A stretch of 58,673 nt of DNA from Minisyncoccota bacterium (GCA_018062445.1 JAGOSG010000002.1:1-58673), one strand, 5' to 3'; shown: positions 27,013 through 53,431, counted from the first letter of the stretch. Notes: generated by a model not told the origin, from the sequence alone. Made by a program: numbers and translations.

Positions 27013-27054
27013 CGATATAGTTTAATCTAACGATCGTTAGATTAAACTATATCG
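27013..27054. promoter_or_regulatory. 42-bp perfect palindrome, site 1 of 3 (candidate operator or recombination site)
   Basis: cgatatagtttaatctaacga|tcgttagattaaactatatcg. Confidence 0.75.
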
Positions 27055-27720: not shown

Positions 27721-27762
27721 CGATATAGTTTAATCTAACGATCGTTAAATTATACTATACCG
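27721..27762. promoter_or_regulatory. 42-bp imperfect palindrome, site 2 of 3, 49 bp upstream of the PaaX-like gene
   Basis: cgatatagtttaatctaacga|tcgttaaattatactataccg; contains TATAAT on the minus strand. Confidence 0.75.
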
Positions 27763-31567: not shown

Positions 31568-31609
31568 CGATATAGTATAACTTAACGATCGTTAAATTAT
31601 ACTATATTG
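31568..31609. promoter_or_regulatory. 42-bp imperfect palindrome, site 3 of 3, 65 bp upstream of the lipase-like gene
   Basis: cgatatagtataacttaacga|tcgttaaattatactatattg; contains TATAAT on the minus strand. Confidence 0.75.
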
Positions 31610-39812: not shown

Positions 39813-39930
39813 AATAGGGTTTGACTAGCGACGTAGAGTGAGAGAAATACAAAAGTACGCTTTTGGATTTCCGAACCGAGGACGCTAGAAAGGATTGGCG
39901 GGATTCCCCGACACATCCTTACAACTGAAT

Positions 39931-40024
39931 ACGTATCAAGAGTGTGAGGAGGCATCTGGGCCTATGATTCACCAGCAACTTGTCGAAAGATAAAGTGCTA
40001 CCAGCCCTTCGGGGAAAGATATCT
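39931..40024 (+). ncRNA. SAM-I riboswitch aptamer upstream of metK
   Basis: TATCAAGAG...GGAGGCATCTGGGCCTATGA...CCAGCAAC...GTGCTA...GAAAGAT matches the SAM-I consensus; P3 acttgtc-gaaa-gataaagt, P4 ccc-ttcg-ggg. Confidence 0.85.
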
Positions 40025-40029
40025 TAAAC

Positions 40030-48504: not shown

Positions 48505-49500
48505 TTAACGACCCGCAATAAAGGTCGCATCAAATGCCCACGCCGTTGCACGGTCAATCTCTTCTTGGGTGAGTATATTTTCTTTAAGCAAATATGCTTC
48601 TTCATCGGCTAAGTTGGACTGATACATTTCTGGTCCATCAGTATTGATGGTGAACTTCACACCACTATCCACAAAAGCGCGGAGCGTAGAACGCAATTCA
48701 TCAACACTCTTAATGATGCTATTTTTCAAGTTTGATGTTGGGCAAATTTCAAGCGTTATTCCAGCATCTCGCACCAACTCAAGAAGCGATGGGTCTTGTG
48801 CCGCGAGTATGCCGTGTCCGATTCTATTTGGTTTGATTGTAGTTACTACATAGCGCATTTCATCAACTGAACCTTCTTCTCCCGTATGAATGGTGACACC
48901 AAGTCCTCTGTCGCGCGCACGAGCAAATAAAGGGGCGTGTGCCTCCATAGAAAAATCCTTTACATGCGGACCTGCAATATCGATACCGACAACGCCGTCC
49001 TTAGCATAGCGAATTGCTTTGTCTAAAATAATCTCATTCTGTTCAATTGAAAACCGGCGATCCATGGAAAGAAGAATGCCTGCTTTAACTTGAGGATACT
49101 CCAGAAGTGCGCGGTCCATACCTCGGAGACTCGCACTAATAATGTGATCGAGATCTCGCTCACCAGAGCGATTGCGACGCATAGGATTAAAACGAAGCTC
49201 CTGCAATACAATGTTGCATTTTCTATATCCCCCACCAATGACTGAGTGTACTGACACCTCAAGAGCTTCTGGCGATGATTGGATGCGCTCTGTCCACTCA
49301 AAATATTTACGATCCATTTCTTCGAGCGAGGTATTTCGCTCGTCCGCAGACATAGTAATCATTTCTTCAAAATCCCAATAGTCTTTAGAGGGGAGTTTGA
49401 TGCCTTGCTGGTGAGCAATCGTCCACATGATGACGGGGTCCACGGATGAGCCGAGGTGTGAATGGAGTTCTGCCCGTTTTTTCGTCATGTGATGCACCAT
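48505..49500 (-). CDS. Adenosine/adenine deaminase family amidohydrolase
   Basis: ELHSHLG, GIDIAG, TIHTGE, RIGHG, EICPTSN, INTDGP. Confidence 0.88.
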   Translation of the reverse strand: MVHHMTKKRAELHSHLGSSVDPVIMWTIAHQQGIKLPSKDYWDFEEMITMSADERNTSLEEMDRKYFEWTERIQSSPEALEVSVHSVIGGGYRKCNIVLQELRFNPMRRNRSGERDLDHIISASLRGMDRALLEYPQVKAGILLSMDRRFSIEQNEIILDKAIRYAKDGVVGIDIAGPHVKDFSMEAHAPLFARARDRGLGVTIHTGEEGSVDEMRYVVTTIKPNRIGHGILAAQDPSLLELVRDAGITLEICPTSNLKNSIIKSVDELRSTLRAFVDSGVKFTINTDGPEMYQSNLADEEAYLLKENILTQEEIDRATAWAFDATFIAGR

Positions 49501-49562
49501 ATACTGTCTACAAAAAATACTCCTTAATGTATTTTCATACTATCACGGAGCATCTAAAATTC

Positions 49563-49706
49563 TGGAGCCGATGATCGGAATTGGCGTCAAGTCACTAAGC
49601 TCGAGGACTTACTAAGTGCTTCCTGCCCGACCTCGCCTGCCGTATACGGCATGGCTCTGGTTTTCAATTCCGAACATACGCAAAGCAGTTTGCGTATTCC
49701 ATTCGC
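49563..49706 (-). other. tRNA-trailer structured element at tRNA-Thr(GGT)
   Basis: Antisense T-arm copy split by a 22-nt hairpin, conserved core, then a 21-bp direct repeat of the tRNA 3' end at 49563-49583. Confidence 0.75.
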
Positions 49707-49782
49707 TGGAGCCGATGATCGGAATTGAACCGATGACCCCCACCTTACCATGGTGGTGCTCTACCAACTGAGCTACATCGGC
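49707..49782 (-). tRNA. tRNA-Thr(GGT)
   Basis: GCCGATG...CATCGGC-T-CCA, anticodon arm CCACC-ATGGTAA-GGTGG. Confidence 0.95.
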
Positions 49783-49853
49783 GGGTGCGAATATAGTATC
49801 CGAAAAACTGACTATTGCCAAAGTAAATGTACTTTTTGAACTGCTAGAATACA

Positions 49854-50402
49854 TTGGTGCTTAAGCATTACCCTCGCTTCACTACTATTGCCCTCTCGTA
49901 TGTTGCAGCGGGATTACTTTTTATATTTCTTGGTCCTGAATTTTTTCAAACACTCATACTGCCATTTGGCATCTTTGGGGTCATCGTCGCTGGAGCTCTG
50001 TACACCTACAGCTTCACCACAGCTATCGGAGCTCTGCTTTTAATCGCGCTTGTTCCGTATCACCCAATAGGAGTGCTAGCCGTCGTGGGCGGCATTGGAG
50101 CCACGCTTGCCGATTTCACTATTTTTAAATTCGTCCGTGATGATTTAAAGAAAGAAGTGCGACGATTTGGTGCTTCAAAGATGATACAAAATGTATGTTC
50201 AGCCAATGGAATTCTATGTAAAAAGTGGATGCGTAATCTGATGGGAGTCATGATTATGGCTTCACCATTTCCTGATGAACTCGGCATTGCAATGATGAGT
50301 ACCACAAAGATGAAGCGCGAAACATTTCTACTCCTTGCATTTATTGTAGATATAATTGGTATCTATCTTTTGGTATTCACTGCGAGCGCACTGTTGCCGT
50401 AG
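49854..50402 (+). CDS. Hypothetical membrane protein (DedA/VTT-like, tentative)
   Basis: Five to six TM segments, GGIGATLAD, SPFPDELG motif. Confidence 0.65.
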   Translation: MVLKHYPRFTTIALSYVAAGLLFIFLGPEFFQTLILPFGIFGVIVAGALYTYSFTTAIGALLLIALVPYHPIGVLAVVGGIGATLADFTIFKFVRDDLKKEVRRFGASKMIQNVCSANGILCKKWMRNLMGVMIMASPFPDELGIAMMSTTKMKRETFLLLAFIVDIIGIYLLVFTASALLP

Positions 50403-50426
50403 CAAGCAAAAAACATCATTCCGCTT

Positions 50427-50476
50427 GTCAGCACCCAACGCAGGCAAAGCAGTTTGCCTGCTTCAGCCGCTTGCCA
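50427..50476 (-). other. tRNA-trailer element (antisense module only) at tRNA-Asp
   Basis: gtcagcaccca + ac + 22-nt hairpin + t + tcagccgc..gcca is the tRNA-Asp 3' end, inverted and split. Confidence 0.75.
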
Positions 50477-50477
50477 T

Positions 50478-50514
50478 AAGAAAAAACGAATATCTATGAT
50501 ATTCGTTTTTTCTT
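50478..50514 (-). terminator. Terminator-like hairpin directly 3' of tRNA-Asp
   Basis: aagaaaaaacgaatatc-tat-gatattcgttttttctt. Confidence 0.75.
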
Positions 50515-50589
50515 TGGCGCGGCTGATGGGTGCTGACCCCACGACCTCCCGCGTGACAGGCGGGTGCTCTACCGTTGAGCTACAGCCGC
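50515..50589 (-). tRNA. tRNA-Asp(GTC)
   Basis: GCGGCTG...CAGCCGC-G-CCA, anticodon arm CCCGC-CTGTCAC-GCGGG; atypical T-loop GTCAGCA. Confidence 0.92.
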
Positions 50590-50783
50590 AAATGAGGGAG
50601 AGAGTGAAAGTTTATTTTCACTCTTCCCGAATGCCGCGGCTGAAAGCTTTGCTTACAGCCCGCAAACCCATCGGAAGATGCTCCTGATTCAATACGACCT
50701 CAAACTTGCCTCGAGATCGTGTATTTGCGATTCTACCAGAAAAAGCCTTTAAAAACGAGTGCGGGGAGAACCTAGCATCAGCA

Positions 50784-50949
50784 TCGGGAGGACTAGGCCA
50801 CGAGTAATCTTGCGCCGTCGCTTAAGATTCTCTCGGCCCCCGCTCACGGTCCAGCGAGGCGCTGGACATCGTTCCGCGCTGCAAGTCCTCACGCATTGTG
50901 CATTTGCACAATGCTCTCCCGACACAATATGTCGCTTCGCTTTATATTG
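50784..50949 (-). other. tRNA-trailer structured element at tRNA-Met/Ile2(CAT)
   Basis: tgcaagtcctc + ac + 22-nt hairpin + t + ctcccgacacaa; core ctctcggcccccgctcac..gacatcgttccg; partial sense copy tcgggaggact. Confidence 0.75.
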
Positions 50950-51023
50950 TGTCGGGAGGAGGACTTGCACCTCCGACCTAGGGCTTATGAGTCCCTCGCT
51001 CTAACTACCTGAGCTATCCCGAC
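50950..51023 (-). tRNA. tRNA with CAT anticodon (elongator Met or Ile2)
   Basis: GTCGGGA...TCCCGAC-A, loop CTCATAA, T-loop TGCAAGT; CCA not encoded; Met vs Ile2 not resolvable by eye. Confidence 0.88.
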
Positions 51024-51045
51024 AATGAGACTAATCTATCATTAT

Positions 51046-51726
51046 TTAGGTCTTCTTCAAAAGCGTTTCCGCTACAGCCACATCTTCCGGGTAGGTTACG
51101 GTAATCCATTGATTTTGGCGAACAACGGCCACGGGCTTTTCTTTCGCAATCACTGAGAGCATATCGGTCAAGAAATATTCGCCAAGTCGTGGGTGAGCAA
51201 ACGGAGTGATTAAAAACATATCAGGAGAAAGTATCATTGCGCCAGAATTTACCAGATTACCAACAGGGTTTTCTGGTTTCTCAACAACCTCTTTAAGTGT
51301 GCCATCGGGATTTAACTCAACAACACCGTAGCGTTCAGGATGTTCTTTCTCTGCTACAAAAAGACAGTATTCATACTCAACTCCTTTTGTGAAAGCCTGC
51401 TTGTCACCAATATCATCACCATAGAGCATGATGAATTTTTCAGTTATAAGCTCTTTCGCTAAATATACTGCGTCCCAAGTTCCAATTTGTTTTTCTTGAA
51501 CAATGTAATGAACGGACTTCCCTTTCCATTCAGTACCAAAGTACTCTTGTATTTTTTCTCCTTTGTACCCGATGATAATCACAATGTCAGTCACCACATC
51601 AGGGAGTTGCTCCAATACATATTCTAGAAGTGGCTTCCCATTAAGAAGCACCATGCCTTTGGGCTTTTCGTCCGTGAGTGGACGAAGTCGTTGCCCTTCT
51701 CCGCCTGCGAGTATTAAAGCTTGCAT
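51046..51726 (-). CDS. Sugar-phosphate nucleotidyltransferase (NTP_transferase)
   Basis: ALILAGGEGQRLRPLTDEKPKGMV, YGDD, YGVVEL, EVVEKP. Confidence 0.88.
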   Translation of the reverse strand: MQALILAGGEGQRLRPLTDEKPKGMVLLNGKPLLEYVLEQLPDVVTDIVIIIGYKGEKIQEYFGTEWKGKSVHYIVQEKQIGTWDAVYLAKELITEKFIMLYGDDIGDKQAFTKGVEYEYCLFVAEKEHPERYGVVELNPDGTLKEVVEKPENPVGNLVNSGAMILSPDMFLITPFAHPRLGEYFLTDMLSVIAKEKPVAVVRQNQWITVTYPEDVAVAETLLKKT

Positions 51727-51785
51727 GAATCAAATAGTACCGACAAATACAAGAAAAGGAAACGTGTCAGGCAAACTTAAAAATC

Positions 51786-52118
51786 CTAATCCTCCCTGTC
51801 TTCAATATCCTCAATATACTTTCTTACCGGTTCCGCTACTGTATCTTCATTAATGTCTCTTGTAATACAGAAATCTGTTTTAAACCAATCCCTTATTTTT
51901 TTATTTCCTCTACTTGAATTACAGCTCCAGCAGCAAATCGTAACGGTTGCCGGGTTATTCCAGGGTGGCAAATAATTCAAGTGTTCGATTGTGTACCAAT
52001 TGGAGCGTTTATTATGTGCGCCGTGATCTGTCATTTTCTTGTGACAGTAGACACATATTTTATCTCTTTTAAAAATACGTTGAAGCTCATCTTTAGGGAG
52101 CCCATAGTTGTTTTTCAT
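51786..52118 (-). CDS. Stand-alone HNH endonuclease
   Basis: RDKICVYC ... TIEHL ... CCWSCNSSRGNK. Confidence 0.75.
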   Translation of the reverse strand: MKNNYGLPKDELQRIFKRDKICVYCHKKMTDHGAHNKRSNWYTIEHLNYLPPWNNPATVTICCWSCNSSRGNKKIRDWFKTDFCITRDINEDTVAEPVRKYIEDIEDRED

Positions 52119-52166
52119 AGTTTGATTTATGCATGACAGTCACCTGATTGGCATATGACTGCTACT

Positions 52167-52471
52167 GGGGCCAGGATTTGGTCACGAGTCAGTAAGTATT
52201 TTACCTCCACAAGTTCGAAAAATACTAACTGCTCTCGACCCCACCTCACCTGTCGCAGAGCGACATGGTTCCGGTTTTCGAATCCTGACGCAAGACGAGC
52301 AGTCGTCGATGTCCGGATTCTCTCCTTACAGGAGCTGTACACCTTTGCAATTTTCTCGAAGCAAAACTTCTCAAAAATATAGCAAAGGACTTCGAATCCT
52401 GGACATGAAGCGTGCAGACGCTTCATTCCCCGCAACGCAAAACACCGAGCGGATGCTCGGTGTTTATCTTG
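52167..52471 (-). other. Composite tRNA-trailer structured element at initiator tRNA-Met
   Basis: Hairpin 52439-52465; antisense 3' end split by a 22-nt hairpin (52391-52436); second antisense T-arm (52278-52287); core 52180-52277; direct copy ggggccaggatt 52167-52178. Confidence 0.75.
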
Positions 52472-52542
52472 TTGCGGGGCCAGGATTCGAACCTGGGTCT
52501 GGAGGTTATGAGCCTCCTGAGGTACCACTCCTCCACCCCGCT
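52472..52542 (-). tRNA. tRNA-Met(CAT), probably initiator
   Basis: A1:A72 mismatch, GCGGGG/CCCCGC stem, anticodon arm GGAGG-CTCATAA-CCTCC; CCA not encoded. Confidence 0.9.
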
Positions 52543-52550
52543 ATATTAAT

Positions 52551-52585
52551 TAGCTTTTAGCTTTTAAGTTCCAGCTGTCAGCTTT
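52551..52585. repeat. Heptamer tract (YAGCTNN) upstream of tRNA-iMet
   Basis: tagcttt tagcttt taagttc cagctgt cagcttt. Confidence 0.75.
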
Positions 52586-52660
52586 AAAGACAATAACTCA
52601 TTCCAACATCGATTTCAAGCCACGCCTTCATTCTGCATGTTTCTGCATTGACGCTTTGCG

Positions 52661-53431
52661 TCAAATAAAACCAAACTCCTGAAACACTTGCTCGTAAAGT
52701 TTCATCACACGAAATGCTTCTTGTTGCGTGAGAATATAATTTGAAGAAGACGCACTCACAAAGTTTCGAATACGGTGCGCTTCCCATGCAAAAGGAAGTG
52801 TCACAAAAGCATTTTCAGGTACCAACAAAATTTGATCTGAAGTTGTTTTTCCAATGTATCCAACACTGGCAAGAACTTCTCCTAGAATTATGTCGGCTTC
52901 CAAAATCCCCTGTCGCCAAAGCTTTGGATCGTTAGAGCGAGTGCCGTTCAAAAGTAATTGCCATCGGTCTCGAAGTGGGTGCACATTAACTGATTGCGGT
53001 GGCAGTGAACCATAGAGAGCTCCTTCACTGAAGCGAATAGAAAAAAGATACACAAGAAGACCTACGATGGCGAGAAATAGAAGCCCTGAAACGGTGTATG
53101 CCAAAAAACTATATATAGACCAAAGGAAAGATATAAGTGTTCCAATGAGGTTACCAAAAAAGAAAACGGTATCGAGCATAGGGCCAAACAAGCCACCATG
53201 CACTACTGGCGCCGATGTGGATACAACATCAGTTGAAGCACTTCCACCAAAAAGCCAACTCCAAAAATCAACCTTCCCTGATTGAGCACCAACATTTGCG
53301 CCTGCACTCAGCGTTGCCTCTACACTGCCATTAATTGAATCTACTTCTGTACATTTCCCACCAAAAATTGAATAAATAACACAGTACCAGTATTGAATAT
53401 TTACATACGAAAGATACACGGGGTCGGTCAT
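52661..53431 (-). CDS. Hypothetical membrane protein
   Basis: ATGA overlap with the gatA stop; TM segments then RWQ...LWRQGILEAD...AWEAHRIRN helical domain. Confidence 0.75.
   Translation of the reverse strand: MTDPVYLSYVNIQYWYCVIYSIFGGKCTEVDSINGSVEATLSAGANVGAQSGKVDFWSWLFGGSASTDVVSTSAPVVHGGLFGPMLDTVFFFGNLIGTLISFLWSIYSFLAYTVSGLLFLAIVGLLVYLFSIRFSEGALYGSLPPQSVNVHPLRDRWQLLLNGTRSNDPKLWRQGILEADIILGEVLASVGYIGKTTSDQILLVPENAFVTLPFAWEAHRIRNFVSASSSNYILTQQEAFRVMKLYEQVFQEFGFI

Follow-up and report, generated by a model that had tools for sequence, protein, structure and literature searches.

Protein-less repeats behind tRNA genes of Patescibacteria, probably non-autonomous insertion elements with target-matched segments

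Introduction

Genomic islands at tRNA and tmRNA genes integrate at the 3' end of the gene and regenerate it, both textbook features of such islands (PMC4383910). The trailers described here lie at the same kind of target. They follow four tRNA genes in a 58,673-nt stretch of DNA from a Minisyncoccota bacterium (GCA_018062445.1 JAGOSG010000002.1:1-58673; hereafter the window, meaning this whole stretch), all on the minus (tRNA) strand, and each carries an antisense copy of the 3' end of its own tRNA that is split by a 22-nt hairpin. They are probably non-autonomous insertion elements with target-matched segments, and on the best reading the four trailers, one of them truncated, belong to a Patescibacteria-specific superfamily of modular, protein-less elements of ~100–300 nt. 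Directly established are the anatomy, the covariation and strand of the fold, the distribution, the association with tRNA and tmRNA genes, the arrays, the turnover in relatives and the sharing of cores across targets. On the tRNA-sense strand, a complete copy at a tRNA end consists of X (T loop to 3' end), a cap hairpin that is often a terminator, arm1-A-hairpin-G(T)-arm2, a core, and a displaced repeat, DR2. The two arms together constitute X', the split reverse complement of X, and the core is of type A, type B or both.

Comparison with described systems

With the islands of tyrosine integrases the elements share a 3' target in tRNA or tmRNA genes, a regenerated gene end and a displaced partial copy, all of which were found on testing, together with arrays in which the newest copy adjoins the gene and the existence of non-autonomous derivatives. 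They differ in measuring 100–300 nt without cargo, in having no integrase within ~4 kb of 146 loci and no cognate one in viral, phage or plasmid collections, and in their use of one folded core for many tRNAs, a split antisense target and a 22-nt hairpin. Similar to the bridge RNAs or seekRNAs of IS110/IS1111 elements, known from reports of 2024, they combine a fixed geometry with variable guide-like stretches that are separated by a hairpin and match the target. However, the elements, again at 100–300 nt, have no DEDD/serine recombinase gene in or near them, and clustering at the 146 loci linked no conserved open reading frame (ORF) to them. The guides of IS110/IS1111 address both strands, whereas the two arms are together antisense to one uninterrupted stretch of a single strand; and where IS110/IS1111 have a donor loop and a 2-nt core, the elements have no second loop matching their ends and a repeat of 6–70 nt. 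No sequence or Rfam relation links the two.

Integron attC sites and CTX phage resemble the elements in being protein-less units, in a recombination site (for the elements a putative one) that is a strand-specific fold of variable sequence but conserved structure with an extrahelical feature, in an enzyme (for the elements likewise putative) supplied in trans, and in the insertion of new units at a fixed site with older units pushed outward. Integrons use an R''-L''/L'-R' fold with GTTRRRY at the crossover and an intI-attI platform at one site, whereas the elements lack a common GTTRRRY or an integrase neighbour, occupy many sites, duplicate the target and restore the gene; unlike the attC crossover, their junction lies in the T loop (between TTC and RA) or after CCA. 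Group I and II introns, which pair through an internal guide sequence or exon- and intron-binding sites (EBS/IBS) and of which the IIC introns lie behind terminators, share a junction-spanning pairing with the flank, a structured core and a terminator-like hairpin upstream. A group II intron has a 5' GUGYG, domains I–VI including the catalytic hairpin of domain V, and a 3' AY, whereas the element has a ~90-nt core of three short helices and no Rfam intron match at E ≤10; its tRNA is complete without splicing, and its target is duplicated.

Short and long interspersed nuclear elements (SINE/LINE) are comparable in that the elements are non-autonomous and have a constant 3' end, repeats of variable length and 5'-truncated copies; they differ in their bacterial host, the lack of an A-rich tail and the inverted target copy at the 5' end. 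We know of no reverse transcriptase partner for them. Miniature inverted-repeat transposable elements (MITEs), repetitive extragenic palindromes and their mosaics (REP/BIME) and palindrome-associated transposable elements (PATEs) are likewise small, abundant, protein-less and built of hairpins, and PATEs fold strand-specifically. Unlike those of MITEs, the ends of the elements (cap and arm against GTGACC or AAGGAG) are not inverted repeats, and the flanking repeats are of 6–70 nt rather than fixed; the elements also have target-matched arms. PATEs of the IS200/IS605 family have subterminal hairpins recognised by a Y1 HUH TnpA and insert 3' of a 4–5 nt target without duplication, whereas the elements duplicate their target and have no tnpA, tnpB or RAYT (REP-associated tyrosine transposase) gene nearby. 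A TnpB omega RNA with DR2 as the guide was considered and rejected: the filled site regenerates the target, there is no tnpB, and no Rfam omega RNA or HEARO match was found. T-boxes lie upstream of the gene they regulate and carry a specifier codon and a UGGN bulge for pairing with the anticodon and NCCA; the elements lie downstream of the tRNA and pair with the T arm and acceptor strand, and Rfam T-box models gave no match in the window or in 49400-52700. Because the defining features tested for IS110, attC, group II introns, MITEs and IS200/IS605 were not found, the element is filed under none of these.

Anatomy of the four trailers

The tRNA genes were called with ARAGORN and Rfam, and the tRNA strand was also read directly. 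Hairpins were located by a mechanical scan for 9-4-9 hairpins; arms and repeats were linked independently by inverted- and direct-repeat search. Behind all four tRNAs (Thr, Asp, Met/Ile2 and an initiator-like tRNA-Met, iMet), the minus strand reads antisense of the acceptor 3' strand, A, a hairpin of 9 bp and 4 nt, GT, and antisense of the T arm. This layout had been claimed in an earlier note on this DNA and was recovered by direct reading and by the inverted-repeat search. The scan placed the four hairpins exactly where the note had them and with the same geometry: nine Watson-Crick pairs and a 4-nt loop in 4/4, an A as 5' neighbour and GT as 3' neighbour. The loop is CTGC in Thr, Asp and iMet and AAAT in Met. 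That each trailer copies its own tRNA in antisense holds for arm2 (11, 11, 11 and 12 nt in Thr, Asp, Met and iMet) and for arm1, which in Thr is only TGGA.

The claim that three trailers continue into a shared core stands for Thr, Met and iMet, which all carry type A; it had missed that the first iMet core is of type B, the iMet trailer being two tandem elements with different cores, type B and then type A. The sense re-copies described at the ends are present: 22 nt exact in Thr (49562-49583 = 49706-49727), 12 nt in iMet and ~11 nt in Met. The Asp copy is truncated, with arms and hairpin kept and the core gone beyond ~13 nt; the 3' end of the neighbouring ORF lies at 50402. In Thr, DR2 pairs with arm2 to form helix P1, and the predicted minimum-energy fold of the locus pairs the tRNA T arm with arm2 in a three-way junction (z = -3.3). 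Met arm1 forms a 15-bp helix with the tRNA 3' end and trailer (50944-50958). The features of the four trailers are as follows.

49707-49782, minus: tRNA-Thr(GGT) (ARAGORN, Rfam)
49706-49727, minus: Thr X, direct-repeat copy 1, the last 22 nt of tRNA-Thr (direct-repeat search)
49698-49701, minus: Thr arm1 TGGA, antisense of terminal TCCA; 4 nt only, much shorter than in other copies
49676-49697, minus: Thr 22-nt hairpin, ATACGCAAA CTGC TTTGCGTAT (9-4-9 scan)
49663-49673, minus: Thr arm2 TCGGAATTGAA, antisense of T loop and T-stem 3' strand, 11 nt (inverted-repeat search)
49583-49666, minus: Thr type A core, a divergent family member (covariance model, E = 6.5e-8)
49562-49583, minus: Thr displaced repeat DR2, 22/22 identical to the tRNA 3' end (direct-repeat search)
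50515-50589, minus: tRNA-Asp(GTC) (ARAGORN, Rfam)
50478-50514, minus: Asp cap, a 17-bp terminator-like hairpin in the interval between tRNA and arm1 (inverted-repeat search)
50463-50476, minus: Asp arm1 TGGCAAGCGGCTGA, antisense of acceptor 3' strand and CCA, 12/14 match (read directly; inverted-repeat search)
50440-50461, minus: Asp 22-nt hairpin, GCAGGCAAA CTGC TTTGCCTGC (9-4-9 scan)
50427-50437, minus: Asp arm2 TGGGTGCTGAC, 11 nt against the T arm (inverted-repeat search)
50414-50426, minus: Asp core-start remnant AAGCGGAATGATG, ~13 nt (by eye against the 26-core alignment)
50949-51023, minus: tRNA-Met/Ile2 (CAT) (ARAGORN, Rfam)
50916-50930, minus: Met arm1 ATATTGTGTCGGGAG (inverted-repeat search, 15/15)
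50893-50914, minus: Met 22-nt hairpin, loop AAAT (9-4-9 scan)
50880-50890, minus: Met arm2 GAGGACTTGCA, 11 nt against the T arm (inverted-repeat search)
50796-50883, minus: Met type A core (strict pattern; covariance model, E = 3.3e-15)
50784-50795, minus: Met DR2 TAGTCCTCCCGA, a decayed copy of the T loop-to-acceptor region (~11 nt with a 3-nt deletion)
52471-52542, minus: initiator-like tRNA-Met (CAT) (ARAGORN, Rfam)
52440-52465, minus: iMet cap, a terminator hairpin between tRNA and arm1 (inverted-repeat search)
52428-52435, minus: iMet arm1 TTGCGGGG, 8 nt (read directly)
52405-52426, minus: iMet 22-nt hairpin, ATGAAGCGT CTGC ACGCTTCAT (9-4-9 scan)
52391-52402, minus: iMet arm2 CCAGGATTCGAA, 12 nt against the T arm (inverted-repeat search)
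52322-52390, minus: iMet type B core, in which GGTGTACAG-CTCC-TGTAA-GGAG comes after a long hairpin (read directly; 19-mer scan)
52311-52319, minus: decayed direct repeat after the type B core, AATCCGGAC (read directly)
52277-52307, minus: beginning of the distal, second iMet element, with a degenerate CTGC hairpin of which 5 bp remain, followed by GT and arm2 (read directly; repeat search)
52277-52287, minus: arm2 of the second iMet element, CAGGATTCGAA (inverted-repeat search)
52180-52280, minus: type A core of the second iMet element (strict pattern; covariance model, E = 1.4e-20)
52167-52178, minus: iMet DR2 AATCCTGGCCCC, a 12-nt repeat that pairs with arm2 of the second element (read directly)

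A separate mini-helix resembling the acceptor stem of tRNA-Asp (GCGGGCTG-taagcaaagcttt-CAGCCGCGGCA, 50632-50665, minus strand) lies between the Met element and tRNA-Asp, just upstream of the latter; it could be the vestige of a tRNA.

The type A core

In an alignment of 26 cores, the type A core folds into three parts: P2, a 3-bp helix that flanks an internal loop containing tandem G.A pairs; P3, a hairpin that varies; and P4, a long hairpin with the base GGUCGAGAG/ACUCGUGACC. Covariation of the core helices, a check that had been proposed for this family, is evident at columns 7/44 in P2 (CG 8, GC 7, AU 6, UA 3, GU 1) and at columns 56/101 at the base of P4 (GC 14, AU 12). Columns 52/105 hold an invariant G-U pair, which places the core fold on the tRNA-sense strand. 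To judge from the sequence, the G-U and tandem G.A pairs look like RNA motifs.

The strict pattern GGAACSATG-N8-24-GTGAG-NN-GGGGYCGAG, derived from the Met and iMet cores, was scanned exactly over 185,579 species genomes and matched 27, all 27 of them Patescibacteria (metagenome-assembled genomes labelled Paceibacteria, Kaiser-, Nomura- or Saccharibacteria). A covariance model run over the window and 27 loci gave 57 matches; it recovered the Thr copy, which had been left out of model building, at E = 6.5e-8, and found no window copies beyond those named. Among the 50 best model matches, 41 lie at most 500 nt downstream of a tRNA or tmRNA gene of the same strand, and 27 of these at most 150 nt; the rest lie at contig edges or beside tRNA remnants. 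At least 14 isotypes serve as targets (Thr, Asp, Met, iMet, Gly, Lys, Ala, Glu, Arg, Cys, Leu, Trp, Phe and Val), as does one tmRNA (L024).

The earlier note did not recognise a named Rfam family, and no match appeared at gathering or permissive thresholds. Rfam 15 reports only six tRNAs and a SAM riboswitch in the window at the gathering threshold, with no element family, and searching 49400-52700 at E ≤10 gave only noise far below threshold. The strict pattern has no match in viral contigs, phage and plasmid collections hold no element copy, and the searchable literature contains no account of tRNA-trailer RNAs, MITEs, bridge RNAs or HNH-linked RNAs in Patescibacteria. The family is apparently undescribed and Patescibacteria-wide. 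The SAM riboswitch (RF00162, 47.6 bits) lies at 39930-40025 on the plus strand.

Arms, hairpin and displaced repeat

The length of the hairpin, set beforehand as a refutation test, is maintained in the larger sample: 24 of ~26 comparable split-arm copies have 9 bp and 4 nt. They share the consensus A-GNAAGnnnn-CTGC-nnnnCTTNC-G(T), whose variable positions are filled by many pair types. The stems include three G-T pairs and no A-C pairs, so that the hairpin, too, folds on the tRNA-sense strand.

Arm specificity was measured on 24 elements, with the tRNAs of other loci as control. The longest exact match between an arm and its own upstream sequence averages 9.0 nt for arm1 and 9.2 nt for arm2, against 4.9 and 5.0 nt for other loci, a correspondence that exceeds chance. 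The two target segments abut with no gap in 9/24 elements. The correspondence of arm and isotype has exceptions that weigh against our interpretation: L026-Val has two X copies of Val type but an arm that fits a different tRNA, and in L014 the arms fit DR2 better than the tRNA. DR2 begins directly after the GTGACC of the core, and pairs with arm2 at ≥7/8 positions in 53% of copies, compared with 6% of mismatched controls. X' therefore has two possible partners: the tRNA end, with which it makes a three-way junction that has the 22-nt hairpin as one branch, and DR2, with which it closes the core through helix P1.

The split-arm layout is one of three. In a long-palindrome class (L006, L008, L009, L013, L026, L035) the paired segment consists of the last 3–5 nt of the tRNA and an A-rich trailer, and the CTGC hairpin forms the tip of the palindrome. 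In a continuous-arm class (L007, L010, L026, L032) the arm is 20 nt long and has no hairpin. In every class X' overruns the repeated segment by a few nucleotides into the left flank, that is, into the TTC of the T loop or the last bases of the tRNA. A strict tRNA-mimic reading, in which the split always falls at position 65/66, is weakened by the subfamilies that use the tRNA end and trailer and by the continuous-arm subfamilies without a hairpin.

Caps and the tips of P3 and P4 repeatedly carry the loop motifs AGCGAAGCGAA and GCGACGGC (L004, L010, L013, L016, L017, L026, L027; window 50931-50943 and 50812-50830). GCGAAGC forms an unusually stable DNA mini-hairpin. On the sense strand the GCGAAGC loop motif occurs 7 times (1.0 expected) and GCGACGGC 8 times (0.2 expected), and both are enriched on the sense strand of the elements only.

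Two observations concern unusual targets. At L022 (2150-2300) and L025 (1660-1700), element arms match CCCGCTCGAGCA, which lies outside every ARAGORN tRNA; this target may be the 3' end of another stable RNA. At L018 (573-646, plus strand) ARAGORN calls a tRNA with the anticodon TTA, which would read UAA, with the same element behind it and in the place held by tRNA-Lys(CTT) in the close relatives L007 and L010. This gene could encode a suppressor or a recoded tRNA.

Type B and the wider superfamily

A 19-mer of the type B core, GTACAGCTCCTGTAAGGAG (window 52322-52340, minus strand), is found exactly in more than 119 species genomes, a lower bound; all the matches listed (L052-L170) are Patescibacteria, and viral contigs contain none. 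Rfam at E ≤1 found nothing on eight type B loci. Only ~18 of the first 80 type B copies lie behind a tRNA. The others occupy the ends or starts of protein genes, 5' parts of tRNAs (tRNA 5' halves in L082 and L128) or an anticodon loop. The earlier description of the family as tRNA-programmed needs revision, since the family is not intrinsically tRNA-specific: type B is mostly at other targets, and a preference for tRNA ends marks the A/hairpin branch rather than the family at large.

Direct repeats of 10–70 nt flank these type B copies and thereby preserve the interrupted gene in one complete copy. At L076, where type B sits at the start of msrA, the repeat is 28 nt exact by scan and ~35 nt by eye; at L108 it is ~70 nt. 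L004 holds composite copies with arms and an A-like domain followed by B. The cores of types A and B are unrelated, yet both are joined to the same arm/hairpin module; this module and the two core domains can therefore be regarded as interchangeable parts of a single superfamily. The possibility that the AAGGAG end of type B is a portable ribosome-binding site was rejected, since an ORF start is suitably spaced in only 5/110 copies.

Type B copies of several Zambryskibacteria/Paceibacteria genomes (L078, L089, L113, L121, L123, L165, L170) hold a complete tRNA-Ile on the opposite strand inside the loop of the long hairpin, with partial copies of the same tRNA outside both element halves.

Arrays, relatives and cores shared across targets

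Arrays combine different types (B then A behind iMet in the window and in L021; class 1, the split-arm layout, then class 2 in L027), and within them the tRNA-proximal copy is intact while distal copies are decayed or truncated. Comparison of relatives, which had been suggested as a check, provides evidence of turnover. Five relatives (L004, L011, L012, L014, L016) that share the prfB-ftsEX-NTP-transferase gene order of the window have different element configurations, or none, at the same tRNA-Met, -Asp and -Thr, and the same is true of the Cys-Leu-Lys-Leu cluster in L007, L010, L015 and L019. The comparison fell short within a strain: three contigs from the same strain are all 100% identical, with no polymorphic site among them. 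Across genomes, cores that are 91–94% identical accompany tRNAs that are not the same. In L010, two copies that follow separate tRNA-Leu genes have cores that differ at 2/88 positions and an identical cap strand, and arms that differ at 6/21 positions, each matching its own tRNA-Leu.

Neighbouring genes

ORFs were clustered around 27 and then 146 loci, within ~4 kb. No linked recombinase, transposase or reverse transcriptase was found in the 146 loci, where the neighbours are housekeeping genes only; the co-occurring recombinase that the earlier note had suggested looking for is not linked to these loci, and the elements are taken to be non-autonomous.

One neighbour in the window is a 110-aa endonuclease VII/HNH-like ORF (51786-52118, minus strand) that starts 47 nt past the last displaced iMet 3' end. 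It matches HNH/endonuclease VII families in PHROG (E = 5e-6) and nothing in Pfam or PDB. Its closest homologues (66–73% identity; L031-L036, L042) lie beside a tRNA or a displaced tRNA end; the tRNAs differ (Ser, three Gln, Arg, Ser), an element lies in between in four cases, and a short conserved leader, GCTAGCACAARATGCTT, precedes two homologues. The ORF resembles a mobile nuclease cassette that stands alone and prefers the flanks of tRNAs. Its proximity to the elements is suggestive, a lead rather than a test of association.

Elsewhere in the window, a palindrome, TAATCTAAC GATC GTTAGATTA, with flanks atatagtt/aactatat, occurs three times (27023-27044, 27731-27752 and 31578-31599) and may represent another repeat or operator family.

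Discussion

Of the three readings offered in the earlier note, a non-autonomous element that inserts at tRNA 3' ends and carries guide-like arms fits best, given the mixed arrays, the turnover and the shared cores. We consider it probable that the trailers are such elements. They would move, or would have moved, by means of an activity supplied in trans that acts on the folded sense strand, be it RNA or single-stranded DNA, and for which the conserved core and hairpin would be the handle. The X'/X pair would be either a base-pairing target selector or a segment copied from the target during insertion. Insertion would leave the interrupted gene functional, since a copy of the target segment would then flank the element on either side.

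Several observations weigh against this interpretation, in addition to the two arm exceptions. The same-strain contigs and the 146 loci yielded neither a polymorphic site nor a linked enzyme. In many copies the arms come after a terminator or after a T run within the hairpin, so that the tRNA promoter is unlikely to drive efficient transcription of arms and core. The direct repeats of 6–70 nt are unlike the fixed target duplications of classical transposases. Finally, gene conversion between the halves of the inverted repeat could maintain the match of the arms, with no guide function.

A more specific and rather unlikely version is that the elements represent a new kind of nucleic-acid-programmed insertion, in which the sense strand of the element, as RNA or single-stranded DNA, pairs through its arms with the tRNA-sense strand and a trans enzyme cuts the resulting three-way junction. 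The 22-nt hairpin would turn the arm/target duplex into a defined junction, beside which the core would dock; a structure-specific enzyme, for which the endonuclease VII/HNH-like protein adjoining displaced tRNA ends is a candidate, would cut at the branch points and so leave a copy of the paired segment on each side of the insert. The element itself rather than a protein would then encode the choice of target, and this code would be rewritten upon movement. It is also conceivable, if unlikely, that the trailers are scars or miniatures of tyrosine-integrase elements, attL-attR remnants left after cargo loss and comparable to cis-mobilisable elements. The repeat does span the T loop to the 3' end with the tRNA regenerated, a tmRNA is used as well, new copies adjoin the tRNA in arrays, and repeat length varies as do attP/attB identity blocks. 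Yet no integrase lies within ~4 kb of any of the 146 loci, the split antisense copy and the length-invariant hairpin are foreign to att sites, and viral contigs, phages and plasmids have no copy. The same covarying core stands behind at least 14 isotypes, which would call for many integrase specificities in genomes of ~1 Mb. The earlier suggestion of a decoy for integrases found no evidence. SINE-like retroelements, whose RNA is copied at staggered nicks by a reverse transcriptase in trans, would account for repeats of 6–70 nt as variable-length target duplications, for the constant 3' ends (GTGACC in type A, AAGGAG in type B), for 5'-truncated copies that keep the 3' end and repeat (L007, L010, L015, L027) and for the RNA-like motifs of the fold. 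We hold this, too, to be improbable: no reverse transcriptase is linked in the 146 loci, 3'-truncated copies exist (window Asp, L012 unit 2, L025 unit 3), terminators stand ahead of many copies, and simple target-primed synthesis does not explain the inverted target copy at the 5' end.

That the trailer instead benefits the host as a cis part of the tRNA unit, acting in termination, 3' processing or the sequestering of read-through and co-evolving with the gene apart from occasional duplication, is distinctly unlikely. The tRNA-adjacent copy is indeed the best preserved, caps are terminators, arms keep their match to the tRNA where the acceptor part of DR2 is lost (8 elements, indicative), and the predicted fold pairs the T arm with arm2 (z = -3.3). 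Against this, presence is polymorphic at the same tRNA in relatives, many tRNAs have no element, arrays mix unrelated core types, near-identical cores follow different tRNAs, and type B relatives are mostly away from tRNAs. The narrower proposal of a cis-acting switch of tRNA maturation has poor support, given the same polymorphism, the terminators that often lie in between and one subfamily that pairs only with the trailer and not with the tRNA body. Chance similarity or random fold-back errors of replication can be set aside as exceedingly improbable; template switching near hairpins can yield inverted and direct repeats, but the core recurs in more than 27 species and the 19-mer in more than 119, the helices covary, and the hairpin is conserved in length and sequence.

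Taken conservatively, the elements are a widespread, unannotated structured repeat of the smallest bacterial genomes, present in dozens to hundreds of species. They reshape tRNA loci, create pseudo-tRNA fragments and can mislead predictors of tRNAs, terminators and genomic islands, while the core and the 19-mer are conserved enough for use as markers. By duplicating exactly the gene segment that they interrupt, they make a case for harmless insertion. If they are mobile and base pairing specifies or copies their target, a protein-less class of ~150 nt would join CRISPR-associated transposons, IS110 bridge RNAs and group II introns among the few programmable systems of DNA insertion, and would point to a so far unseen enzyme in Patescibacteria.

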